In this document: positions 5,323 to 24,741 of the stretch, piece by piece
How positions within the stretch are numbered: position 1 is the stretch's first letter
Layout: each line of letters opens with the position of its first letter
From: Promethearchaeota archaeon
GTDB lineage: Archaea > Asgardarchaeota > Lokiarchaeia > Sigyniarchaeales > SOKP01
Assembly (NCBI GenBank): GCA_011364925.1
Contig: RDOA01000029.1
Span: 1 to 25,368, forward strand
Length of the DNA: 25,368 nt
Reading direction: 5' to 3'
Program-made: the position numbers and the translations under genes
The notes under the pieces: model-generated
What the model was told of the DNA's origin: nothing
The model's database searches: none
What the model saw: only the letters and a program-made list of their open reading frames with translations

Positions 5323-6354
5323 TTATGTTTTTTCAAGAAGTTTTAAATCAATTCTTTTTGATAATAATTTTTCGTTTGATACTTCATCAATAATAAAGAA
5401 AAGATAATCGTCAACATATGGAATAATTGGGGAGATGAACACCAATTCTTCTTGCGCTTCCCAGGAATCAATTGTTTCAATCATTACTTCTTTCTCAAAA
5501 TACTCTTTAAGGTGATTAATTTTTACAATTGTCCCTTTTATTGCGTGAAGCGAATTATTTTGGACTAAAATCTCTAGTTCTTGGCTATCTTCAATGATAT
5601 TAATTTTAAGGATAATAAACGGTTTTTTGTCTACGAAATTGACTTCTCCTTGTATATTTGGATCAAACAATTGAATGTTTGAAAAGGTACCGTTATATTC
5701 TTTACCATCTAAGTGAGATACATCGATCCCTTTAAACGCCAAATAAGCAATGGCTTTTTGCATTCTTATTGAAGTAGCGTCAGAATTTTTAATTACATCT
5801 GAGAAAAACTTGTTAGTGGTCACTTCGATCTCTGTTCTGAGTTCTTTCTTAAAGGAGTCACCCTTTTCTATACGCGTTTTCACTGTAGGAGATTTAATAA
5901 CCTCTTCTTTTAAAATCTCAGAATCGATAATTTCAAATAACTTACTTTCGTACTTGTCGCGGATGTTTTGAGTTAATAATCTAATCAGTCCGTCCCCAAA
6001 TAGCTCAATATTGTCGGGGAGCGATAATATCACTACAATCGTTTCGGGAGTTTCTACTTCGAGTCCAGCTCTTCTTTTTTCCCGTTTTGAACGTGTTAAA
6101 AATTTCTTACCAAAAAAGGTATATCCTTTAAATTCTAAATCTATGTGGTCTAATGCGTCAGATTCGTCTAAACTTAAGAACCAAATGGGATGATACTTAA
6201 TCGGACGCATAAATGTTTTATTATTTCTATAATTATCATCTGGGTAAATCAATAAAGGCATGTGGCCTTGAGCTTCGTCAAAATACATCACATAAACGAT
6301 AGCTAGGTCTTCGAAAGGATTTTTTTTTGAAGTTGAATCAAATAATTCAGCCAA
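5323..6354 (-). CDS. Hypothetical protein with N-terminal longin/uDENN-like domain and C-terminal Ig-like beta-sandwich
   Basis: IVYVMYFDEAQGHMPLLIYP resembles the first beta-hairpin of uDENN/longin domains. C-terminal LEILVQNNS...VKI...IDSWEAQEELVF has an Ig/CARDB-like pattern. TTG start. Confidence 0.6.
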   Translation of the reverse strand: MAELFDSTSKKNPFEDLAIVYVMYFDEAQGHMPLLIYPDDNYRNNKTFMRPIKYHPIWFLSLDESDALDHIDLEFKGYTFFGKKFLTRSKREKRRAGLEVETPETIVVILSLPDNIELFGDGLIRLLTQNIRDKYESKLFEIIDSEILKEEVIKSPTVKTRIEKGDSFKKELRTEIEVTTNKFFSDVIKNSDATSIRMQKAIAYLAFKGIDVSHLDGKEYNGTFSNIQLFDPNIQGEVNFVDKKPFIILKINIIEDSQELEILVQNNSLHAIKGTIVKINHLKEYFEKEVMIETIDSWEAQEELVFISPIIPYVDDYLFFIIDEVSNEKLLSKRIDLKLLEKT

Positions 6355-6472: not shown

Positions 6473-7564
6473 ATGAAAATAACTGACATTAAGACATATG
6501 TGTTAAAAATGGATTTTAAAGTTAAGATTGGAAGCATGCCAAGACTACAGGCTAGCGGTCTTTATACCAATCTTAAAACAGATGAGGGGATTGATGGTTG
6601 GGCTTTAACCCATTGGAATTTAAGCAACATGGCTCAGAAACAGTTTATCGACGAAGCTCTAAAACGATTAGTTTTAAATAAGGATCCGTTTATGGTTGAG
6701 GAAATATTCCACGAGATATATCAAAACACAAATAGTATTATGTTTGGGATACCTCAAGCTACTTCTGCGATAGAAATAGCGTGTTGGGATATTATAGGAA
6801 AAGTTACTAAGCAACCGATATATAAATTGCTTGGTGGCAGAAAAAGAGAAGTAAATTGCTATGCTTCCATCCTACGAGCGTATAAACCACAACCAGCAGT
6901 AAAGACCGTTGAAAACGCTTTGAATCCAGAATTGGGAGGTTTTAAAGCGGTAAAATTACGAATCGGAATGGGAGTTAACGAAGATGAGGCTGTTTTGAAG
7001 GAAGTGAGAGACACATTTCCCGACATAGATATCATGGTAGATGCCAATTCAGCATATCACACGGTAAACGACGCATTCAAAGTTGCAAAAATTTGTGATA
7101 AATACGATGTTACTTGGTTAGAGGAACCGATTCCTACAGATAACCTTAATGGTCTAGCGAAATTAAGAGCAAAATCTCCGGTTCAGATTGCGGGAGGTGA
7201 AAATGATATGGGAATATTTCGGTTCGAAGACATTCTTTCCAGAGAAAGCTTTGATGTTATTCAACCAGATGCTACGCGCGTAGGAGGCTTTTTACAATCA
7301 AAGAAGATCGACGCTATGGCTGAAGTGAAAGGTGTTCAATGCATACCCCATATATTTGGATTTGGACATATTTTAGCAACAGCTTTACATATTATCATGT
7401 CAACACGATGTGAATGGTGCGAGTTTCCCTTTTTCCCTGAAGAGTTTCAAATGCTTGAAGAACCAATAAGAGCAAAAAAAGGGAAAGTTCAAGCGTTGGA
7501 AAAGCCAGGATTAGGAGTAGAGATCAACAAAGAAATGTTTGAAAAAAATGTTTTAAAAATTTAA
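6473..7564 (+). CDS. Mandelate racemase/muconate-lactonizing enzyme family protein (enolase superfamily), probably an acid-sugar dehydratase or cycloisomerase
   Basis: MKITDI, AIEIACWDIIGK...PIYKLLGG, metal ligands MVDAN/WLEEP/GGEN, VIQPD, IPH, and KPGLG. Catalytic strand reads KLR. Confidence 0.92.
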   Translation: MKITDIKTYVLKMDFKVKIGSMPRLQASGLYTNLKTDEGIDGWALTHWNLSNMAQKQFIDEALKRLVLNKDPFMVEEIFHEIYQNTNSIMFGIPQATSAIEIACWDIIGKVTKQPIYKLLGGRKREVNCYASILRAYKPQPAVKTVENALNPELGGFKAVKLRIGMGVNEDEAVLKEVRDTFPDIDIMVDANSAYHTVNDAFKVAKICDKYDVTWLEEPIPTDNLNGLAKLRAKSPVQIAGGENDMGIFRFEDILSRESFDVIQPDATRVGGFLQSKKIDAMAEVKGVQCIPHIFGFGHILATALHIIMSTRCEWCEFPFFPEEFQMLEEPIRAKKGKVQALEKPGLGVEINKEMFEKNVLKI

Positions 7565-7698
7565 ATATAGAATTTCAAATTTTATTATTTTTAAATCTCT
7601 TTTTGAAAAATTCAAAATTAAAAGGTTCATCTATATTTTTTAGTAGAGAATATAACTAAGATTTTATTATATAATTAAAAGAATAATTAAGTGAGAAT

Positions 7699-8844
7699 AT
7701 GAGACCTATCACAGGAGAGAAATTCGAATCGATTTTAAAATTTTTAGAAGAAAAGAAAATCGATGTTTTGATGATAGCTGATTACGAGAACAGTAGAAAT
7801 GTGAATATGCAATATCTTTCTGGTCATCCAACCGATGCAACAGTGCTAATTAACTCAAGTGGAGAAACGATCTTAATGCCATGGGACATTTCATTAGCTG
7901 AAAAGTATTCTGAAGTTGACGAAATTATAAACGCAGCAAATTTTAGTTACAATCCATTTTTGGCATTAAAGGATTTATATGAAAATCGATGGAAGAAATC
8001 GTCATATACGGTGGGAATCCATTCAATAACTCCTTATGGCTTTACTGTAAAATTAAAAGCGCTTATTCCAAGTATATCGTATTTTGGTAATTCTATAGAA
8101 GTAGACAATTTTTTACAAGAATTACGTGCGACGAAGAGCGATTTTGAGATTAAAAAGTTAATACAAGCTGCAGAAATTGGTAATAACACGATTACCGACA
8201 TAAAAGATTTTTGTTTGAATACGCCCGATGACACAGAGAAAGACTTATCGTTCATAATACGAAAGCAAATGGCTAAGTACGGAGCGGATGACGTCTCGTT
8301 TGAGCCGCTTGTCGCCAATTCTGCCCGCGCACACGAAATACATCAATATCCGTATGCGAGCGATCAAAAATTTTGTTTACCGGGATTAGCTTTAATTGAT
8401 TTTGGAGCTAAGTATCAGGGATATTGTAGCGACATTACTGTTTCAATTAGTTTTGGGGATTTATCGGACGATCAAATTAAAATGCGTGAAGTTACGCTCA
8501 AAGCCTATGAGGCTGCAATTGAAATGATTGATATAGGCGTACCATTATGGAAAGTTCACGATACGGCAGAACAAGTACTTAAAGATGGAGGATTTCAAAT
8601 GCCCTATTCTCTAGGTCATGGATTGGGATTGAGCGTTCACGATTCCCCTATAATCTCCCGCAAACCAACAGATGAATACACAAAAAAGTTTTGGAAGGAA
8701 GAAACATTTCAAGACGGAATGGTTTTTACCATAGAACCGGGAACTATTAAGCCGGGATTGGGAGGACAACGCATCGAAAACGATGTCGCAATTCAAAATG
8801 GAAAAGTTGAAATTATTACTAAATCAGAACTTTTATCATTTTAA
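7699..8844 (+). CDS. M24B Xaa-Pro aminopeptidase/prolidase
   Basis: Metal ligands in IDFGAKYQGYCSDIT, GHGLGLSVHD, FTIEPG and RIEND; creatinase-like N-domain. Confidence 0.92.
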   Translation: MRPITGEKFESILKFLEEKKIDVLMIADYENSRNVNMQYLSGHPTDATVLINSSGETILMPWDISLAEKYSEVDEIINAANFSYNPFLALKDLYENRWKKSSYTVGIHSITPYGFTVKLKALIPSISYFGNSIEVDNFLQELRATKSDFEIKKLIQAAEIGNNTITDIKDFCLNTPDDTEKDLSFIIRKQMAKYGADDVSFEPLVANSARAHEIHQYPYASDQKFCLPGLALIDFGAKYQGYCSDITVSISFGDLSDDQIKMREVTLKAYEAAIEMIDIGVPLWKVHDTAEQVLKDGGFQMPYSLGHGLGLSVHDSPIISRKPTDEYTKKFWKEETFQDGMVFTIEPGTIKPGLGGQRIENDVAIQNGKVEIITKSELLSF

Positions 8845-9669
8845 TTAGTTGACTTGTGACTTTTTAGCATAAAGCATAAATACGCCCATCGACCCAAATC
8901 GACTGTCTTTTTCTTTTTTCACATTAAACCCTTTATCCTCTAACATTTTACCTAATTTATTTAAAAGATTTTCTCCCCCTTCAATGTGTTCGTGAACTTC
9001 CATAGAAATCTGTTGGATTTTGTCCCAATCAGACTCATTAATTCCTGAAAGTACTTGGAATTCGTAATTCTCGGCATCTATTTTCATTAAATTTATGGTC
9101 TTTAGATTGTTTTCTTGAATTATATCTGAAATCGCTCGCAATTTACATGGTATTAGTTCCGATTTATACATTCGTTTTAATCCCATCTTAATGAAACTCT
9201 TTCGCAGAAATTTTGGTACATATTTTGCCCCCGGAATAAAACCAACAACCATTTCTTTATAATTACGAAGAAACTGATTCACTTTCAAATCCCAATCGAA
9301 TTCAATTATAGCGGAATCAGCGCTTACTTTAGGATAATAATGAATCTTGGTAATCCCCTCTTTTTCAGCTAATCCAACATTATAATTTTTGACTTCAGCA
9401 GGTAAATTTTTCAAATTTTCCTCCAAAGCATCAAAAGTTATAGGAACCGGTTCAAACGTAAAAATCCGTAAATTTTTCGCTTGTGTTGCCATAAAGCGAG
9501 AAAATAATCCAATATTTGCCCCTACATCAAAAACAACATCGTTATCTGCTACATGAATTCCATAACGAAGATAATCGTTTTCTATATAGATTTCGTCATA
9601 TATGTCTAGAGCAGTCAATTTATCTACATAAGTAATAATTTCTCCATTTGGTAAAGTAAGCGTTTTCAT
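8845..9669 (-). CDS. FkbM family SAM-dependent methyltransferase (paralog A)
   Basis: VVFDVGANIGLF, FEP, LMKIDAE and IQQISMEVH motifs. Confidence 0.92.
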   Translation of the reverse strand: MKTLTLPNGEIITYVDKLTALDIYDEIYIENDYLRYGIHVADNDVVFDVGANIGLFSRFMATQAKNLRIFTFEPVPITFDALEENLKNLPAEVKNYNVGLAEKEGITKIHYYPKVSADSAIIEFDWDLKVNQFLRNYKEMVVGFIPGAKYVPKFLRKSFIKMGLKRMYKSELIPCKLRAISDIIQENNLKTINLMKIDAENYEFQVLSGINESDWDKIQQISMEVHEHIEGGENLLNKLGKMLEDKGFNVKKEKDSRFGSMGVFMLYAKKSQVN

Positions 9670-12952: not shown

Positions 12953-13783
12953 TTATGGTCGTTTAGCATAAAGCATGTAAACACCTATTTTGAGAGAGTA
13001 CCTATTATCTGAACCTCTTTTAACAGAATATCCTTTACTTTCCAACATTTCAGATAAATTATTTAGAAGATTTTCTCCTCCTACAATATGTTCGTGAACT
13101 TCCATAGAAATCTGTTGGATCTTATCCCAATCAGAGTGATTTAACCCTTTAAGTACTTGAGTTTCATAGTTCTCAGCGTCAATTTTCATTAAATTAATGG
13201 TTTCAAGATTATTTTCCTTGATTATGTCTGAAACTGTTCGTAATTCGCACGGTATCAACTTTTCTTTATATAACCGCTTCAATCCCACTTTTATAAAGCT
13301 TCTTCGGAGGAATTTTGGTATAACCTTTACATATGGATAAGCCTTAGCAACAGTCTCCTTGAAATATTGATGGTAGTTGTTAACTTTTAAGTCCCAATCG
13401 AATTTAATAATAGCAGAATCAGCACTTACTCTCGGGAAATAATGGATTGTAGCAATCTCCTCTTTTTCGGCTAACCCAATGTTATAATTTTTAATTATGG
13501 CTGGTGAGTTCTTAAGGTTCTCTTGTAGTACATCAAATATCATTGGTACGGGTTCAAAAGTATAAATATGTAAATTCGTTGCCTTCGTTGCTATATAACG
13601 AGAAAATAATCCTATGTTCGCACCAATATCAAAGACAACATCGTTATCATTTAGTGTAAGCCCGTGGCGAAAATATTCATTTTCAATATATACTTCATTG
13701 TAAACATCAAGCGCTGTTAGTTTGTCTATGTAAGAGATAATTTCTCCATTCGGTAGGGTAAGCTGTTTCATCTTTTTCTTCAT
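12953..13783 (-). CDS. FkbM family SAM-dependent methyltransferase (paralog B)
   Basis: VVFDIGANIGLF, FEP, LMKIDAE and IQQISMEVH motifs; colinear with 8845-9669. Confidence 0.92.
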   Translation of the reverse strand: MKKKMKQLTLPNGEIISYIDKLTALDVYNEVYIENEYFRHGLTLNDNDVVFDIGANIGLFSRYIATKATNLHIYTFEPVPMIFDVLQENLKNSPAIIKNYNIGLAEKEEIATIHYFPRVSADSAIIKFDWDLKVNNYHQYFKETVAKAYPYVKVIPKFLRRSFIKVGLKRLYKEKLIPCELRTVSDIIKENNLETINLMKIDAENYETQVLKGLNHSDWDKIQQISMEVHEHIVGGENLLNNLSEMLESKGYSVKRGSDNRYSLKIGVYMLYAKRP

Positions 13784-13895: not shown

Positions 13896-14705
13896 ATGTC
13901 TAGTTCAGAAGTCTGGTATGAAGTAATAGAACATAAAGATTATTTATATGTTATAAGAGAAAGGATCGATGAGATCGAACCTCGGTTTCATACCGCTTAT
14001 GTAAATATTTATTTACTATTAGGTAGTGAAAAAGCTCTATTAATTGATACTGGTTGCGGCCTTTTTCCTCTGAAGCCAATTATCGATAAGATAATAGGAC
14101 AAAGGGAGCTTTTAGTGTTTAATACTCATTGTCACTTTGATCATAGAGGCGCAAATGATGAATTTCCAGAAGTTTATATCCATGAGAGTGAGAAAAGTAT
14201 GATTTCTGTACCTGAAGACATTTCTTGGTTAAAAGATTCTTCAAAGGAGATAGTAGAAAAATATAAAAAAAAAGATTTTAAACTTAAACCTTCCGCAATT
14301 ATAAAATCCTTAAAAGAAGGAGATGAATTAGATTTGGGTGGAATAAAGGTTAAAATTATTCATACTCCCGGTCATTCAGTTGGTTCAATCTCACTATTTA
14401 CTGATAAAGGAGAACTATTTACAGGAGATCTTGCCCATTATGGAGCAATGTATCTTCCAAAAAAATCAGAATTACATGTAATCTTAGAAAGTCTTTCAAA
14501 ATTATTAACATTATTTGAGAACTTTAAGTCGAAAAAGATTTATCCCGCACACGAAGATTATGCTGTGGGAAAAGAATTAATATCTTCTCTGCATAAAGGA
14601 ATATCCAATCTCGATCTTATCTGGCATACAAAAATAAAGGATGAGTTCTTAGAAGCTTGGATATTGGATGACAAAAATTTTAGATATGTAGTCTCGATTA
14701 AGTAA
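13896..14705 (+). CDS. Metallo-beta-lactamase-fold hydrolase
   Basis: LIDTG, NTHCHFDH, HTPGH, FTGD and YPAH motifs. Confidence 0.92.
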   Translation: MSSSEVWYEVIEHKDYLYVIRERIDEIEPRFHTAYVNIYLLLGSEKALLIDTGCGLFPLKPIIDKIIGQRELLVFNTHCHFDHRGANDEFPEVYIHESEKSMISVPEDISWLKDSSKEIVEKYKKKDFKLKPSAIIKSLKEGDELDLGGIKVKIIHTPGHSVGSISLFTDKGELFTGDLAHYGAMYLPKKSELHVILESLSKLLTLFENFKSKKIYPAHEDYAVGKELISSLHKGISNLDLIWHTKIKDEFLEAWILDDKNFRYVVSIK

Positions 14706-17284
14706 TGATGCAAAAAGTAGATAAAATAGTTTTATCGCAAAATTGGACTTTAATTCATAAAGAGAAGGGGCTGAGATTATCTACAGAAGTTCCTGGTTCA
14801 GTGTACGAATCATTAATTGAAAATAACATCATTGAGGACCCATTTTTTGGATTAAATGAACATAAGATGGGTTGGATATATGAATCGGATTGGGAATACC
14901 ACCTACTCTTTGATCTTGATAAGGCATTTTTAGAACATAAAAATATAAGTTTACGCTTTAATGGAATTGATACTTTTTCTGAAATATGGTTAAACGAAGA
15001 GTTCTTAGGCTCTACTGACAATATGTTTGTATATTATGAGTTTGAGGTGAGCTCAAAACTTAACCAAAAAGAAAATGTTCTAAAGATCGTAATTAAAAGC
15101 CCTACAAAAGTAGCAGAAGAGGAAATAAAGAAACATAAGGTTAAGTTAAATACAGGATCAGATTATCTTCCTGGAGTGCCTTATTTAAGAAAAGCTCAAT
15201 ATTCTTTTGGCTGGGATTGGGGCCCAAAATTACCAGATATTGCGATTTGGAAACCAATAGAGCTTATTGGACATGATGGAATGAGAATCAATTCTGTTCT
15301 TATTGATCAAATTTTTAAATATAATATGGAACCTACTGAAATAGAAAATCCTCAAGATATAACAAACATCGGGGTAATGGCTGTTGATTTATCCATAAAA
15401 ATTCAGTTATCTGGAGTCGATGATGTAAGTAAATATCAAATTCAGATTGAATTGACGGCTCCTGATGATACAGTACTTTCTCAAAGACATGATTTCGATT
15501 CATTAATTAATTTCCATATTGAATATCCATATCTTTGGTGGACACATGATCTAGGAACTCCTAATTTATACGATCTAAAAGTTTCTCTATTAAATGAAGG
15601 AATTGTAGAAGAATTCAAGCAAAAAATTGGAATGAGGGATCTTAGATTAATTCAAAATGAAGATCAGTGGGGAAAGTCATTTTATTTTATATTAAACGGC
15701 GTACCATTGTTTGCTAAAGGTGCAAATTGGATTCCAATAGATAGTTTTATACCTCGTGGCAAAAAGAAGGGATTATATCAATCAAATTTGAAAAATGCTA
15801 AGGAAGCAAACATGAACATGATTAGAGTGTGGGGTGGCGGGATATACGAAACTGATCTATTCTATGACCTATGCGATTTTCTCGGGCTATTGGTTTGGCA
15901 GGATTTTCCTTATGCTTGTGCTATTTATCCTTATCATGAAGAATTTTTCAAGAATATCCAACTTGAGTCAAAACAAAATGTAATTAGACTCAGAAACCAT
16001 CCTAGCCTTGCTCTTTGGTGTGGCAATAATGAAATCGAATGGTTATGGCTTTGGGAACTTAAAATTTCTGAAATTGAAGAAGAAAGTGTAATCAAAAAGT
16101 ATATGGACGGATATATAAAATTGTTTGAGGAAATCATTCCAAGATTACTTGAAATTTACGATCCAAATCATTTTTATTGGCCTAGTTCCCCTTCAAATGG
16201 ATTTCCAGGTCAGGATTTAGGATCCACAGATTCGAATTCAGCTGATAAAGGAGACTCACATTTCTGGGAGGTTTGGCATTCTAATAAACCATTTAAGGCG
16301 TATAAGAAATTTCATTCAAGGTTTATGTCTGAATTTGGTTTTGAGTCGTTTCCATCTATGAAAACAATCGAAGAATTCTGCCCGAGTGAACAATATATCA
16401 TTTTTTCGCCAATAATGGAAAACCATCAGAAAAACTCAGCTGGAAACAAAAAAATTTTGGATTATATGAAAAAAAGATTCTCGATACCTGAAGCGTTCGA
16501 AAATCAAGTAATTTTATCTCAATTAACCCAGGCTGAAGCGATCGAGTATGGTGTTGAACATTGGAGACGCAATCGTAATCAACACCATTGTATGGGCTCC
16601 CTCTACTGGCAATTAAATGATTGCTGGCCCGTCGCTAGTTGGTCATCACTAGATTATTCTAACCGCTGGAAGGCACTTCATTATTTTGCGAAGAGATTTT
16701 ATCAACCACTCTTCGCAAGTGTAAATGAAAGTAAAAAAGACGCTGAGTTATGGGTAACTAATGATTATAAGATTCAAAGAAATGTAAGATTAGAATGGAA
16801 AATCTTAGATTATCGTTCTAGCTTATTAAAAAGTGGAGAGAAACAATTAATAATTAATCCTTGCACATCACTTTTAGTAGATAAAATAGATTATGAGGAT
16901 ATTGTAAAGAGGAGTGAGCAGATTATTTTGATTAATCTATTTGATACTGAACATGGGGATTTAATATATCAAAATTTTCGATTACTCGATGCTCCGAAAA
17001 GATTCCCACTAAAGAATCCATCTCTTACATGGGAATGCCATAAGTCTGCTGATTTTGAATATGAAATTGAGATATCGAGTAAGGAATTGGCATTATATGT
17101 GTTTATAGATTCAGATAAATTTGATCTTATTGCTAGTGATAATTTTTTCGTTTTAGAGCCCAATAATTCAAAGACTATCGTTCTCAAAGAATTAAATTTT
17201 GTATATTCCTCTGAACCGTATCCTTTAGTCAACAAAACTGATTTTATTGTGAAATCACTATATGATTTGATCGAATTTTCATAA
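14705..17284 (+). CDS. GH2 beta-mannosidase
   Basis: RKAQYSFGWDWGP, KGANWIP, RVWGGG, WQDF, WCGNNE (acid/base), SEFG (nucleophile) and WQLNDCWP. TAATG overlap with the MBL gene. Confidence 0.92.
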   Translation: MMQKVDKIVLSQNWTLIHKEKGLRLSTEVPGSVYESLIENNIIEDPFFGLNEHKMGWIYESDWEYHLLFDLDKAFLEHKNISLRFNGIDTFSEIWLNEEFLGSTDNMFVYYEFEVSSKLNQKENVLKIVIKSPTKVAEEEIKKHKVKLNTGSDYLPGVPYLRKAQYSFGWDWGPKLPDIAIWKPIELIGHDGMRINSVLIDQIFKYNMEPTEIENPQDITNIGVMAVDLSIKIQLSGVDDVSKYQIQIELTAPDDTVLSQRHDFDSLINFHIEYPYLWWTHDLGTPNLYDLKVSLLNEGIVEEFKQKIGMRDLRLIQNEDQWGKSFYFILNGVPLFAKGANWIPIDSFIPRGKKKGLYQSNLKNAKEANMNMIRVWGGGIYETDLFYDLCDFLGLLVWQDFPYACAIYPYHEEFFKNIQLESKQNVIRLRNHPSLALWCGNNEIEWLWLWELKISEIEEESVIKKYMDGYIKLFEEIIPRLLEIYDPNHFYWPSSPSNGFPGQDLGSTDSNSADKGDSHFWEVWHSNKPFKAYKKFHSRFMSEFGFESFPSMKTIEEFCPSEQYIIFSPIMENHQKNSAGNKKILDYMKKRFSIPEAFENQVILSQLTQAEAIEYGVEHWRRNRNQHHCMGSLYWQLNDCWPVASWSSLDYSNRWKALHYFAKRFYQPLFASVNESKKDAELWVTNDYKIQRNVRLEWKILDYRSSLLKSGEKQLIINPCTSLLVDKIDYEDIVKRSEQIILINLFDTEHGDLIYQNFRLLDAPKRFPLKNPSLTWECHKSADFEYEIEISSKELALYVFIDSDKFDLIASDNFFVLEPNNSKTIVLKELNFVYSSEPYPLVNKTDFIVKSLYDLIEFS

Positions 17285-17344
17285 ATTATTTACATCTTAT
17301 TTTATTTTTCTACATAATTTCAATTGGATATTAGGGATTTTTCT

Positions 17345-18649
17345 ATGACCAAAAAGCAAAAAGTAGTATTAATAGGTGCGAGTTCGCTACAATTTGGCTT
17401 GGGTACAGCAGGGAGCATCATAAACAGCGAGATTTTGCAGGGCTCAACAATTAGTCTGCACGATATCGATTCGACTAATTTAGAATTAGTTACCCAAGCC
17501 TGTAAAGGAGCTATTGAAAAAGGAAACTTCGATATTGAACTTGAATCGACAACAGAAAGAAAACAAGCGTTAAAAAACGCAACTTTTATTATTAATTCCA
17601 TAGAAATACCCCCCAGATTTGAATTGTGGAATTTGGATTATGAAACACCTCGTAAGTATGGAAACAAGCAAGTCTATGGCGAGAATGGCGGACCTGGTGG
17701 ATTATTTCACTCTTTAAGAGTGATTCCTCCTATTCTTAAAATATGTGATGATATTCAAAAGATATGTCCCAGTGCGTTCCTCATTAATTTTTCAAATCCG
17801 ATGAGTAGAATTTGTTTAGCTATCAAGCGTAAGTACCCTGAGTTAAAGTTCGTTGGCTTATGTCACGAACTTCTTGGGTTTCAACATCATTATAGAAAAA
17901 TCTTGAATACTCCTCTTACTAATTTGGATATAGTCGCTGGTGGACTTAACCATTTTGGAGTTGTGTTATCAATCAAATATATTGACTCTGGTAAAGATGC
18001 ATACCCTGATCTCAGAGCTAAAGCTCCAGCTTACCTCAGTGAACTTAAAGGTTATGAAAGTGATGTTGATTTAGTGAAATACATACTTGAAAAGTTTGGA
18101 TACATTCCATACACGCTCGACTCCCACTATGGTGAATACATAGGTTGGGCACACGATAAGGCCAATTTAGAAGGTATAAGACTGTTTTATAACGGATATA
18201 AATCGATAACATTAAAAACGGGCGATAGATTAGTAAAGAGGATAAAAAGAGGAAGTGGAGCAAGTTTAGTAAAACCAGATAATGAAAGGGCAATTCCTAT
18301 CATTGAAGGGATTATTACTGATTCAGGACATCAAGAAGCTTCAGTCAATTTACCAAATGATGGAGTCATAACTAACATTCTTCAAGATTTAGTAGTGGAG
18401 TGTCCAGCGATTGTTAATAAACATGGGTTGGAAGCCGTAAAACTTGGAGATTATCCAAAAGGATTAGCAGCTTTATTGCGTAATCAAGCTTCAGTCCAAG
18501 ATTTAGTAGTAGATGCAATTCTTAAAAAATCTAAAGAACTTGCATTTCAAGCGTTACTTTTAGACCCAACGATTGACAACGCCACTAAAGCCGAGGAGAT
18601 GTTCGAAGAAATGATAAAAATAAATCAAAATTATATTGATTTAAATTAA
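17345..18649 (+). CDS. GH4 NAD+/Mn2+-dependent glycosidase, probably alpha-glucosidase subgroup (CHE motif)
   Basis: Rossmann strand VVLIGASS, GENGGPGG, NFSNPM, GLCHEL, GLNHF and VVECP. The ATG at 17345 is preferred over the TTG at 17324. Confidence 0.88.
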   Translation: MTKKQKVVLIGASSLQFGLGTAGSIINSEILQGSTISLHDIDSTNLELVTQACKGAIEKGNFDIELESTTERKQALKNATFIINSIEIPPRFELWNLDYETPRKYGNKQVYGENGGPGGLFHSLRVIPPILKICDDIQKICPSAFLINFSNPMSRICLAIKRKYPELKFVGLCHELLGFQHHYRKILNTPLTNLDIVAGGLNHFGVVLSIKYIDSGKDAYPDLRAKAPAYLSELKGYESDVDLVKYILEKFGYIPYTLDSHYGEYIGWAHDKANLEGIRLFYNGYKSITLKTGDRLVKRIKRGSGASLVKPDNERAIPIIEGIITDSGHQEASVNLPNDGVITNILQDLVVECPAIVNKHGLEAVKLGDYPKGLAALLRNQASVQDLVVDAILKKSKELAFQALLLDPTIDNATKAEEMFEEMIKINQNYIDLN

Positions 18650-20629: not shown

Positions 20630-20719
20630 GATGAAATAATCACTTTTAGATGATTTAAAATATATTTAATACCAATAATGTCTTCTTTCAAATAAATTTG
20701 ATACTAAATTAACTTACTA

Positions 20720-20725
20720 GAGGAG
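20720..20725 (+). promoter_or_regulatory. Shine-Dalgarno for the sulfofructose transaldolase
   Basis: GAGGAG 6 nt before the ATG at 20732. Confidence 0.7.
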
Positions 20726-20731
20726 TAAACC

Positions 20732-21400
20732 ATGAAATATTTCCTTGACAGTGCAAAATTAGACGAAATTAAATACGCGTTAAATAATTGGGGAATTGAT
20801 GGAGTAACATCAAATCCTAAACACATAAAGAGTTCTGGCAAATCTTTTTATAGCGTGATAAAAGAATTTGCCGAAGAGTTCAAAGATCTAGACTTCCCTA
20901 TATCAGTAGAGATAAACCCTCACATATTTGACTCAAAAGAGATGGTTTCAGCAGCAAAAGAGATCGCAAAAATTTCTCCAAATTTTGTAGTTAAAATCCC
21001 TTGTACAGAACAAGGACTGATTGCAGCTAAAGAACTCGAAAATAACGGGATAAAAGTTAATGTCACCCTAGTTTTTACAACGTCTCAAGCCCTACAGGTT
21101 GGAAGGATTGGAGCTACGTATTGTTCACTGTTTATTGGGTGGCAGGAAGGCTCAGGTGTAGATTGTGAAGTCTTAATCTCGGATATCATGCAGATTTATA
21201 GAAATTACGATTTCACTACCAAAGTAATAATTGCTGCTGTACGAAATGCTAAACAAATCGTTGATGCCGCTCGTTTTGGAGCGGATATTGTTACAGCCGG
21301 ATTCCAGGCATACAAAGATAGCTTTGAACATCCTTTTACGGATAAAGGACTTAAAATTTTTCAAGACGCTTGGGATGATACGGAATTAGGAACTTTATAA
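20732..21400 (+). CDS. sqvA: 6-deoxy-6-sulfofructose transaldolase (SqvA/SftT-type; small transaldolase family)
   Basis: MKYFLDSA...WGIDGVTSNPKH, FPISVEINPH, Schiff-base K88 (VVKIPCTE), NVTLVF. Trp137 (FIGW) replaces the Arg of canonical SPFVGR, and Arg171 is kept. It closely follows the Bacillus SqvA sequence as I recall it, and sits next to the isomerase and SQase. Confidence 0.87.
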   Translation: MKYFLDSAKLDEIKYALNNWGIDGVTSNPKHIKSSGKSFYSVIKEFAEEFKDLDFPISVEINPHIFDSKEMVSAAKEIAKISPNFVVKIPCTEQGLIAAKELENNGIKVNVTLVFTTSQALQVGRIGATYCSLFIGWQEGSGVDCEVLISDIMQIYRNYDFTTKVIIAAVRNAKQIVDAARFGADIVTAGFQAYKDSFEHPFTDKGLKIFQDAWDDTELGTL

Positions 21401-21422
21401 TAATCTGTAATGAGGGATTAAA

Positions 21423-22739
21423 TTGAAACAAGAAATACGCGTCGGTCTTGTATGTTTAGCTCGGAAAACTTTTGATTATCAAGCAGCTGAGGAGATTTAC
21501 CGTAAAATCAAAAATGATCTAAATAAATTTGAATATATCCAATGGGAAATTGTAGAGAGCTTGGTTTTTGAGATTGAAGAGGCTCAAAAAGCAGCTCACC
21601 TATTATCTTCCCGAGAAGTCGATGCGTTGGTATGTATAAGTGGTACTTTTGCATTAGGGCATTTAATTTTAGAATTAAATAAGATTGTTAAAAAACCTAT
21701 CTTATTATGGGGTTTGGAAGAGTTACCTTATGACGGCGGAAAAATTCGGTTAAATTCTGTGTGTGGTATTAACTTAAATACGAGCAATTTGTACAAAGCT
21801 GGAGTTCGAAATTATCATGTTGTCATTGGCGACCAAATCGATGAGGATTGGTTGAGCGCAATCCGTATTATCAAAGCCTTTTTTACTAATCGTATTGGGA
21901 TTATTGGATATAGGGCTAAAGGTTTCTTCAATTTAGATGTCGATGAGCTGGACTTGTATAAACAATTAGGTGTTCTCGTTGATCATTTTGAGTTAGATGA
22001 TGTTTACAGTTACGAGGTTAATAAGGGCGAATTAAGGAAAAGAGTAGAGCATATCAAATCAATCTTTGATGTATCTAAAGTAACTGAACAACAACTTGCT
22101 AAAGTTGCAGAATTAGTGGTAAAATTTGAAGGTTTTATCAATGATAATCAATTAAGTGCTCTTGCTGTGAGATGTTGGCCGGAGTTTGCGGAGGATTTTG
22201 GTATTTCTCCTTGTGCCGCGATGTCAATTTTACAATCAGAGGGTAAAATTCTATCATGTGAGGGTGATATTTTAGGAGCATTATCTATGTTGGCCCATAA
22301 AGCTATAGGTGGTGAATCACCATTCATTGCTGATTTCTCACAAGTTGATCTTAAAGAAAATTTTGGACTTCTATGGCACTGTGGTGTAGCAGCTTGTAAT
22401 TTATGGGATGAGAAATGTAATAGGTCTTTAGATAATTATTTTGCCGGAGGAAAAGGAGTTACAGCTGATTTCGTAATGAAGTCTGGAGAGATTTCAATGG
22501 CTAGGATTGATTACGCCCCCGAAGAATATAGAGTCTTCTTACAAAAAGCACAAGGTATACCTATGAATAAAGACCTAAAGGGAACCTATGTTAAAGTAAC
22601 GTTTGAGGAAGATGTAAGGGTTGTACTAGATAAAATTATCCAAAATGGCATAGCTCATCATATTTCTGTAGTTTATGGTGACTTTATTAAACCATTAGAG
22701 ATTTTTGCTAAATTGCAAGGTTGGAAGATTATCAATTAA
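21423..22739 (+). CDS. sqvD: Sulfoquinovose isomerase (SqvD/SftI-type; L-fucose/L-arabinose isomerase family)
   Basis: RKTFD, GGKIRLNSVCG, RCWPEF, CEGD, WHCG and HH motifs, as recalled for SftI/SqvD. TTG start with GAGGGA SD. Confidence 0.82.
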   Translation: MKQEIRVGLVCLARKTFDYQAAEEIYRKIKNDLNKFEYIQWEIVESLVFEIEEAQKAAHLLSSREVDALVCISGTFALGHLILELNKIVKKPILLWGLEELPYDGGKIRLNSVCGINLNTSNLYKAGVRNYHVVIGDQIDEDWLSAIRIIKAFFTNRIGIIGYRAKGFFNLDVDELDLYKQLGVLVDHFELDDVYSYEVNKGELRKRVEHIKSIFDVSKVTEQQLAKVAELVVKFEGFINDNQLSALAVRCWPEFAEDFGISPCAAMSILQSEGKILSCEGDILGALSMLAHKAIGGESPFIADFSQVDLKENFGLLWHCGVAACNLWDEKCNRSLDNYFAGGKGVTADFVMKSGEISMARIDYAPEEYRVFLQKAQGIPMNKDLKGTYVKVTFEEDVRVVLDKIIQNGIAHHISVVYGDFIKPLEIFAKLQGWKIIN

Positions 22740-22752
22740 CGATCTATGAGTA

Positions 22753-24741
22753 TTGATTGTGTCAAGATTAAAGTTTAATAAACTCGCAGATGGGTTTACA
22801 ATATATTTTAAAGATTATCTTTTCCTAAAGCACAGTCCAAATGATCCATGTTTTAAAATCGGCAAGGCAGAAGCTAAGTACAAAATGCATCATGGACACT
22901 TTAAAATTAGGGAAAAAATAAAGACTCAGATTCCTTTGCTGAGATTTAAGCTTTTAGATTCTAGTGATGTTCATTTAGAACTGGAATTTAAAAATTCTGA
23001 AGTACAAGTTCTTAAGGTCTTTATTCAAGCAGAAAATGATATTTTGAGGCTAAGATTTAGTTGTTCTGATCCCGAATTTAATAGATTTTGGATGAGGATT
23101 CAAGCTACCACCGATGAGGCTATATTCGGACTTGGAGAACAATTTTCAGAGGTCAATTTTAGGGGCAAGGAAGTTCCACTTTGGGTTGAAGAACAAGGAG
23201 TTGGACGAGGAGACCCTCCTATAACTGGAGATTGGTACACCACTTATCATCCACAACCCACTTTTGTGTCATCACAGAACTATTTCTGCCACTGTAATAG
23301 TACTAGTTACGCTAAATTCGATTTTACGAATGAAAAGTTTCATGAACTGTATATTTGGAGCGTACCTGGAGAAATTGTGCTCGGTAAATTTGAATATACT
23401 CTTGAGACTGTCAGCAATCTGTCAAAGTTGTTAGGAATCCAACCTAAATTACCGGATTGGGTTTATAATGGAGTTTGGCTGGGAATTCAAGGTGGAAACG
23501 AGATTGTTGAGGAGAAAATTAGAAAGTGTCTCGAAAAGAAAATAAAAATTGCTGCGGTGTGGTGTCAAGATTGGCAGGGAATTCACATGCAAGGTACTCA
23601 GAAAAGATTGATTTGGAACTGGGAATATGACTCAAATCTTTATCCAGATTTACCAAATTACATAAAAAGCTTAAACGATAGGGGTATAAAGTATCTTGGT
23701 TATAACAACTCTATGCTTGCACTGGGGGTAGAACAATACCAATACGCCCTTGAAAACGGTTTAACTGTAAAAAATCTGGATGGAAATCAGTACAAAATAA
23801 TCACTGATAGTGGAGAAAAGTCTTTGCTTGATCTCAGCAATCCAGAAACTATAACATGGTTCAAAGAGATTATTAAAGAAAATATGATAAATATTGGGAT
23901 GTCTGGATGGATGGCAGATTATGGAGAGTATCTCCCAATAGATTGTGTTTTACATTCTGGAGAAAGTCCAGAGATGTTTCACAATAAATTCCCTGTAATA
24001 TTTGCCAAAGCGAATTACGAGGCCGTAAAAGAAGTTGATAAGCTAGAAGAGATCGTCTTCTTTACAAGAGCAGGTTATTCGCATATATCAAAGTACACAA
24101 CAGCAGTATGGGCCGGCGATCAACTTGTAGACTGGAGTTTGGGTGACGGATTGGGAACTGTAATTCCTGCTGGCATATCAATTGGTATCTGCGGCATAGG
24201 ATACTATCATTTTGATATTGGTGGATTTCATAGCCTTGAAAATTACTTTCGCACTAAAGAGTTGTTTATGCGTTGGACAGAAGCTGCGGTTTTCACAATG
24301 ATTATGCGGACTCATGAAAGCGTTAAACCGTACGATAATTTGCAATTTGATTACGATGATGAAACGCTAGAGCATTTTGCTAAAATGGTAGACTTACACG
24401 TTCGGCTTAAACCCTATTTTCAATACATCTCGGAAGAATATCAAAAAACAGGCATAAGCCCCTTTAGAGGATGCTTTTTACATTATGAAAACGATCCTGA
24501 GCTTTACAATTTGAAATATCAATACATGTTAGGACCTGATTTAGTTATCGCCCCTGTAATTGCCCCTAATAAAGATTTATGGAAAGTTTATCTCCCGAAA
24601 GACGATTGGATACATTTGTGGAGTAATACTGAATACAATGGCGGTTGGATATCTGTTAGAGCACCATTAGGTAGGCCTCCCGTATTTTTTAGAAAAGATT
24701 CAAAGTTTAAGGATTTATTCAAAAGTTTAATTGAAATTTAA
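22753..24741 (+). CDS. yihQ: GH31 sulfoquinovosidase (YihQ-type)
   Basis: GEQFS...PLWVEEQGVGR, PQPTFVS, LGIQGG, WCQDWQG...KRLIWNW, nucleophile WMADYGE, acid/base WAGDQ, DIGG and MRTHE. Start is TTG at 22753 or GTG at 22759. Confidence 0.87.
   Translation: MIVSRLKFNKLADGFTIYFKDYLFLKHSPNDPCFKIGKAEAKYKMHHGHFKIREKIKTQIPLLRFKLLDSSDVHLELEFKNSEVQVLKVFIQAENDILRLRFSCSDPEFNRFWMRIQATTDEAIFGLGEQFSEVNFRGKEVPLWVEEQGVGRGDPPITGDWYTTYHPQPTFVSSQNYFCHCNSTSYAKFDFTNEKFHELYIWSVPGEIVLGKFEYTLETVSNLSKLLGIQPKLPDWVYNGVWLGIQGGNEIVEEKIRKCLEKKIKIAAVWCQDWQGIHMQGTQKRLIWNWEYDSNLYPDLPNYIKSLNDRGIKYLGYNNSMLALGVEQYQYALENGLTVKNLDGNQYKIITDSGEKSLLDLSNPETITWFKEIIKENMINIGMSGWMADYGEYLPIDCVLHSGESPEMFHNKFPVIFAKANYEAVKEVDKLEEIVFFTRAGYSHISKYTTAVWAGDQLVDWSLGDGLGTVIPAGISIGICGIGYYHFDIGGFHSLENYFRTKELFMRWTEAAVFTMIMRTHESVKPYDNLQFDYDDETLEHFAKMVDLHVRLKPYFQYISEEYQKTGISPFRGCFLHYENDPELYNLKYQYMLGPDLVIAPVIAPNKDLWKVYLPKDDWIHLWSNTEYNGGWISVRAPLGRPPVFFRKDSKFKDLFKSLIEI

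Follow-up and report, generated by a model that had tools for sequence, protein, structure and literature searches.

Does a Lokiarchaeon carry the genes by which certain bacteria degrade sulfoquinovose (SQ), a sulfur-containing sugar abundant in the membranes of plants and algae? The question is raised by an operon in the window analysed here, that is, the whole 25,368-nucleotide stretch that opens contig C37 (bases 1-25368) in a Promethearchaeota assembly (3.92 Mb, rated 100% complete and 4.2% contaminated). Other contigs (C), genomes (G) and loci (L) are cited by number where they have to be told apart. When the open reading frames were re-read, the three genes of the operon were found to be intact; all lie on the + strand, with the gaps of 22 and 13 nt that the preliminary description of this DNA had reported. 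They encode a 222-aa sulfofructose-type transaldolase resembling SqvA/SftT (20732-21400, +), a 438-aa aldose-ketose isomerase of the AraA/FucI fold, which is a putative SQ isomerase (21423-22739, +), and a 662-aa predicted sulfoquinovosidase (SQase) of the YihQ type in family GH31 (22753-24741, +). The clustering of SQase, isomerase and sulfofructose (SF) transaldolase that the sulfo-transaldolase (sulfo-TAL/SFT) pathway requires is thus present at the locus, and the three genes very likely form the core of this pathway. The reading draws on the identity of the genes, on their key residues and on their linkage and joint occurrence, while the three activities are predicted from bacterial orthologues by analogy with the reconstituted Bacillus pathway (PMC7491151). 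The GH31 enzyme, acting in the cytoplasm, would hydrolyse an SQ glycoside, for instance SQ-glycerol, to free SQ, and the isomerase would convert SQ to SF. The transaldolase would transfer the C3 unit of SF to glyceraldehyde-3-phosphate, a turnover predicted from its bacterial orthologues, yielding sulfolactaldehyde (SLA) together with fructose-6-phosphate, which would enter fermentation. That the sulfolipid sulfoquinovosyl diacylglycerol is the natural source of the substrate is something we only infer.

The transaldolase was compared with proteins of known structure in the PDB. Its top matches were the SF transaldolase BmSF-TAL (8bc3/8bc4/8bc2, E ~1e-88), followed by canonical small transaldolases at 2.5e-45, and it is 70% identical to its counterpart in the SQ cluster of Caloramator (L099). 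The SF-type clade was separated from the canonical transaldolases of Lokiarchaeia with a support of SH-aLRT 100 (all trees in this work are quick SH-aLRT trees). Besides the Schiff-base lysine K88, the enzyme has the acid-base glutamate E60, F134 and the anion-site residues K30, W137 and R171; the pocket roles, sulfonate binding among them, are presumably those of the SqvA structure. K88 is the equivalent of the Schiff-base Lys89 of SqvA (PMC12890257). The replacement of GR by GW in this protein, pointed out in the preliminary description, was seen again: the motif reads FIGW (W137), against FIGR in the canonical transaldolases of Lokiarchaeia, all 18 of the 18 examined carrying T/S30 and R137, and W137, at the position of the phosphate-binding Arg, together with K/R30 sets the SF-type clade apart from them. 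Lys30 was also considered as an archaeal novelty and was rejected, since it is present in 75 of 116 bacterial members of the clade. As a separate observation, canonical Lokiarchaeia transaldolases lie beside genes resembling those of heptose synthesis and transketolase at loci L101-L116, as judged by N-terminal motifs alone.

The GH31 protein scored 793 bits against NCBIfam PRK10426, for which the cut-off is 553. Its top PDB matches were 8r56 and the YihQ-type entries 5aed, 6pnr and 5ohy (E 1e-156 to 1e-196); the next GH31 enzymes followed at 1e-40, more than 110 orders of magnitude behind. The catalytic pair D389/D456 is present, and residues Q246, Q272, R285, W288 and H521 of the E. coli YihQ site are kept, seven of the eight active-site residues checked being conserved. 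At another locus, L042:8448-10514 in Ca. Harpocratesius repetitus, a YihQ-like GH31 was seen in which the acid-base Asp and the sulfonate residues are apparently replaced; from its residues this protein is probably not an SQase.

Of the three assignments, that of the isomerase as an SQ isomerase is the least certain. A sequence search against the PDB gave no match. Its AlphaFold2 model (pLDDT 96) aligned with L-arabinose isomerases at template modelling (TM) scores of 0.86-0.88, and with L-arabinose and L-fucose isomerases taken together at 0.78-0.88 and 12-17% identity. E280, D282, D304, H319 and H413 are invariant, and the model indicates that the protein has the AraA/FucI fold with its conserved Glu/Asp/His set. 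The isomerase falls in a clade with SH-aLRT 100 whose bacterial members are located in SQ-type clusters. Its nearest bacterial relatives (57, 53, 49, 44 and 38% identity) are clustered with an SF-type transaldolase and a GH31 gene, Caloramator (57%) and Brevinema (44%) being among them along with other metagenomic loci. The transaldolase and GH31 genes are found alongside at L089, L091, L092 and L099; L073 has the transaldolase and, where its contig ends, a fragment of GH31, and L074 has GH31 only. The motifs RKTFD, RLNS, RCWP and WHCG named in the preliminary description are present at residues 14, 109, 250 and 318, of which only RKTFD is specific to the clade, the other three being family-wide. 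By PDB and NCBIfam matches and by the trees, all three fall among sulfo-TAL enzymes and not among canonical transaldolases, fucose isomerase or generic GH31 enzymes, in line with the earlier assignment of the operon to this pathway.

The host contig belongs to the Lokiarchaeia (Promethearchaeia), Asgard archaea. The genes flanking the operon are 61-84% identical to those at loci of Promethearchaeia metagenome-assembled genomes and stand in conserved order, the genome contains an archaeal 16S gene, and it belongs to one taxonomic order with the closed 6,035,313-bp genome of Ca. Lokiarchaeum ossiferum B-35 (G016). These results identify the contig as lokiarchaeal, so that the Asgard host proposed earlier stands and the bacterial contig that would have spoken against the proposal was not found. 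The bacterial-like character of the proteins and the 4.2% contamination of the bin would agree with a bacterial contaminant, but the syntenic flanks and the presence of the genes in 30 genomes of the class and on the closed L. ossiferum chromosome refute this explanation, to which we assign a negligible probability. The third-codon-position GC content (GC3) of the three genes, 0.26-0.31, lies inside the genome range and is consistent with a long residence. No plasmid carrying the SQ cluster was found.

The distribution of the genes was followed in 161 genomes of the class, which are mutually related, so that the counts are not independent. The SF transaldolase was found in 35, the isomerase in 45 and the GH31 gene in 49. 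In the 35 with the SF transaldolase, the isomerase accompanies it in 33 and the SQase in 31, and the full trio is present in 30, which argues that it is no chance association. In a sample of 246 genomes of the phylum, two genomes outside the class have the SF transaldolase: G641, with all three genes on one contig, and G729, in which no SQase was found. A locus labelled 'Bathyarchaeota' (L023) was rejected as evidence of a second archaeal phylum, its gene content matching G160, which is placed in the order of the window genome. In L. ossiferum B-35 the transaldolase, a reductase of the SftR type, an AEC transporter and the isomerase lie within ~7 kb (L030:7182-14347); the SQase (L031:7445-9517), with Gln for Arg301 and Phe for Tyr508, lies 1.2 Mb from this cluster. 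The reductase is labelled automatically in GenBank as 3-sulfolactaldehyde reductase, and a second L. ossiferum strain has close homologues of the transaldolase, reductase and SQase. The L. ossiferum proteins have the accessions UYP45182 (transaldolase), UYP45183 (reductase), UYP45188 (isomerase) and UYP46230 (SQase).

Several observations weigh against a sulfo-TAL core and have to be set beside this evidence. The sole NCBIfam match of the isomerase, NF048012 (SftI), reached 242 bits where the cut-off is 700, which puts the protein outside the equivalog, and its identity to the protein closest to the SftI model, that of Tepidibacillus, is only 26%; it is filed as SftI-like and not as an equivalog member. 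The isomerases of bacterial SQ clusters likewise score under this cut-off (577, 387 and 215). In nine genomes of the class the isomerase and SQase occur without the SF transaldolase. No SLA reductase or dehydrogenase was identifiable in the window genome, nor was an SftR orthologue, a DUF4867 gene or a linked transporter found there; L. ossiferum does have an SLA reductase of the SftR type. Finally, the sulfonate-recognition motif of characterised sulfoquinovosidases, Q/E-R-W-Y (PMC12780224; 10.64898/2026.02.11.705467), is kept in the GH31 protein as Q272, R285 and W288, with Tyr changed to F492 at the position of Y508 in E. coli YihQ, a substitution that the preliminary description had not recorded. 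Since the entire GH31 subclade has Phe at this site, F492 is no sequencing error.

The change at Y508 raises the question whether the module is directed at a shifted substrate, namely another SQ glycoside, such as fragments of archaeal N-glycans, or a related sulfonated or acidic sugar, instead of the plant and algal sulfolipid. An N-terminal loop 11 residues shorter than in YihQ accompanies the Phe throughout the subclade, the locus lies amid GH2, GH4, sulfatase and GPH transporter genes, and SQ occurs in the N-glycans of some archaea (PMC11284389, PMC7491151). Against this, R285, W288, both Gln residues and H521 are intact, the bacterial SQ clusters L094 and L096 also show Tyr-to-Phe and Arg-to-Gln variants, and a different aglycone would feed the same pathway anyway. 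We consider such a shift unlikely. A second explanation is decay or repurposing of the pathway in this lineage: it would no longer handle SLA, and its transaldolase and isomerase would have turned to sugar-phosphate metabolism. The operon transaldolase is the only PF00923 gene found in the window genome, a canonical transaldolase occurs additionally in only 7 of the 35 genomes with the SF type, SftT and SftI of Bacillus also act, as a side activity, on sedoheptulose-7-phosphate and fructose-6-phosphate (PMC7491151), and 13 three-gene genomes have no identified SLA step of the kinds described below. However, no transketolase was found in the 100%-complete assembly, making a pentose-phosphate role unlikely; the three genes are intact, 79-86% identical to the copies of close relatives, with residues of the sulfonate type retained; and G729 is the sole case seen of an SF transaldolase for which no SQase was found. 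Repurposing is more improbable still than a shifted substrate. The sulfo-TAL core thus remains the preferred reading, and the locus is filed as the core of the pathway and not as the complete pathway because neither an SLA dehydrogenase (SftD/SlaB) nor an SLA reductase (SftR/YihU) was identified in the genome.

As a further observation, the loci L032-L037 and L040 (G064, G080, G090, G056, G112, G148 and G042) carry the isomerase and SQase with no SF transaldolase, and the loci that were read showed no other cleaving enzyme in its place.

Since SLA must be removed, three situations can be told apart in the class. An SftR-type reductase, 43-55% identical to the reductases of bacterial clusters, occurs in nine genomes, all of which have the SF transaldolase, and it adjoins or lies near that gene. 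Basal relatives with the reductase beside the transaldolase, L. ossiferum included, should by analogy yield 2,3-dihydroxypropane-1-sulfonate. In the second situation, one group of aldehyde:ferredoxin oxidoreductases (AOR) with 66-73% identity was found in 10 genomes of five genera, in a search that scored 8 candidates per genome and may have missed some copies. These genomes have the isomerase and SQase in 10/10 cases, the transaldolase in 9/10 and SftR in 0/10, and a LarA-like gene often goes with the AOR. In three of them the AOR gene, with a 4Fe-4S subunit, stands between the transaldolase and the isomerase (L046:8409-10719 in G051, L082:7969-11566 in G153 and L164:1956-5605 in G151), and a LarA group-22 gene comes next in G153 and G151. 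This cluster-linked group is a candidate for an archaeal, ferredoxin-dependent SLA-oxidising step in the relatives; the window genome does not have it. The third situation is that of 13 three-gene genomes, the window genome among them, in which SftR and the linked AOR group are both absent.

In the window genome 16 proteins of the AOR family were found, none of them operon-linked and the best 37.5% identical to the cluster-linked group, along with two unlinked aldehyde dehydrogenases (ALDHs), 34% and 26% identical to a cluster-linked one. Our guess is that SLA would most likely be cleared by one of these 16 AOR-family proteins or two ALDHs, acting as an unlinked enzyme of broad specificity, and exported as sulfolactate. 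The genome also encodes four TauE proteins as well as numerous GPH symporters, none linked to the operon. An AEC transporter is present in 73 of the 161 class genomes and is unlinked in the window genome, and is weak evidence. A β-hydroxyacid dehydrogenase on contig C112 was rejected as SftR (~31% identity, generic motif). A split UxaA pair (C112:96785-98258) was considered as the sulfolactate sulfo-lyase SuyAB and is unsupported: its identity to a SuyB-like protein of an SQ cluster is 36.5%, its closest plasmid relatives lie in contexts of the sugar-acid type, and the pair occurs in 83/161 class genomes irrespective of SQ genes. Glycyl radical enzymes were scanned as HpsG/HpfG; none of the six scanned, out of eight in the genome, reached the cut-offs, and one is HypD. 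Among the UxaA pair and the glycyl radical enzymes, no support was found for sulfonate cleavage in the window genome. The suggestion made earlier that this archaeon feeds sulfonate-respiring partners found no backing here, as neither an SLA-converting enzyme nor a linked exporter was identified in its genome. A more speculative scheme for the Lokiarchaeia, which we hold only tentatively, is that they ferment SQ by an archaeal form of sulfo-TAL, SLA being oxidised by a tungsten/molybdopterin AOR to give reduced ferredoxin and nickel-pincer LarA possibly racemising the sulfolactate. The C3 sulfonate would then pass to sulfite-respiring partners such as the Desulfovibrio of Loki cultures; the dedicated module is in the relatives, and the window genome would rely on an unlinked AOR paralogue.

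Horizontal acquisition had been proposed earlier. The patchy distribution and the nesting of the Asgard isomerases among bacterial proteins favour a source among anaerobic bacteria, with a gene order like that of Caloramator; acquisition is likely, its direction not statistically established. In the larger transaldolase tree the Asgard sequences are nested in Bacillota, the smaller one left the root open, with approximately unbiased (AU) tests giving p 0.58 and 0.52, and the Asgard SQases are a sister group to the bacterial ones. GC3 at genome level indicates that any transfer was old.

Judged from its genes, the operon is very probably the known sulfo-TAL core in a new domain of life, the route having so far been shown only in bacteria. 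We found no report of archaeal sulfoglycolysis in the literature covered, most subscription journals lying outside it, and a 2026 review states that none has been characterised, which agrees with the earlier remark that no characterised Asgard example was known. The core chemistry is already known. Ca. L. ossiferum, a cultured Asgard archaeon, is described as growing together with Desulfovibrio and probably fermenting peptides (PMC9834061), and the operon reading, if true, gives it a defined selective substrate. Because this cultured organism has the same genes, a sulfonate-based syntrophy between archaeon and bacterium is directly testable.

Upstream of the transaldolase lies a divergent M28 peptidase gene, and downstream of GH31 come an ORF of 86 aa and an AlaX-like gene in convergent orientation. 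The AT-rich stretch between the peptidase gene and the transaldolase (20630-20731, no strand) bears a visible resemblance to its counterparts in L005 and L006, the two closest loci, and presumably carries the promoter; a sigma-70 promoter scan of the region upstream of the operon stayed at chance level. Genes of the enolase superfamily, M24, the metallo-β-lactamase fold, GH2 and GH4 (6473-8844 and 13896-18649) recur near SQ genes in L005, L006, L010, L012 and L040, which suggests that they are part of a wider glycan-use region. A 343-aa protein without Pfam or NCBIfam match (5323-6354) is conserved near the SQ loci in L010 and L012. Two similar methyltransferase paralogues (8845-9669, scoring as FkbM family, and 12953-13783) enclose a membrane α/β hydrolase and an HTH_10 regulator. 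In L008, L011 and L025 an array of up to six GPH symporter genes, candidate SQ importers, stands directly 5′ of the transaldolase; the nearest such gene in the window genome is at C37:32823-34268. A NagB-like gene and an amidohydrolase recur beside SQ genes in L010, L012, L018, L025, L034, L035, L037, L046, L047 and L049. In the Planctomycetes locus L027, too, the NagB-like gene comes after the transaldolase; it was not found in the window genome.

Among bacterial clusters, an M24 peptidase-fold gene stands between GH31 and the transaldolase in those of the Brevinema type (L089:7015-8082, L091:11332-12390). In a bacterial metagenomic cluster (L092:1089-11250), sulfo-TAL genes are accompanied by a SuyAB-like pair, a gene of the LarA family and an ALDH, a possible case, by gene content, of complete SQ mineralisation in one organism.

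The operon can be compared with three known systems. With the sulfo-TAL pathway of Priestia (Bacillus) megaterium DSM 1804 and P. aryabhattai SOS1 (SqvA/SftT, SqvD/SftI, SftG, SftD) it shares an orthologous transaldolase (E 1e-88 to 8bc3) with the same Trp and C-terminal Arg, a YihQ-type GH31 and an isomerase of the FucI/AraA family, all clustered. It differs in its archaeal host, in Lys30 for Arg30, in an isomerase of another subclade, and in having no SLA dehydrogenase, DUF4867 gene, TauE, regulator or symporter in the operon. The SQase is 42% identical to E. coli YihQ and other GH31_13 sulfoquinovosidases, with the same residue at seven of the eight positions checked, and differs in the Phe at Y508 and the shorter N-terminal loop. 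The SFT clusters of anaerobic Bacillota (Agathobacter rectalis and Clostridium symbiosum type) are a further parallel, the closest one seen being the uncharacterised Caloramator cluster L099, with identities of 70, 57 and 43% to the transaldolase, isomerase and GH31 of the window. Its order, transaldolase-SftR-isomerase-DUF4867-GH31, corresponds to the transaldolase-SftR-isomerase-GH31 of the relatives (L010, L012). Unlike these clusters the window genome has no SftR, and among its Asgard relatives an AEC-family transporter replaces TauE in several and the AOR group replaces SftR in ten.

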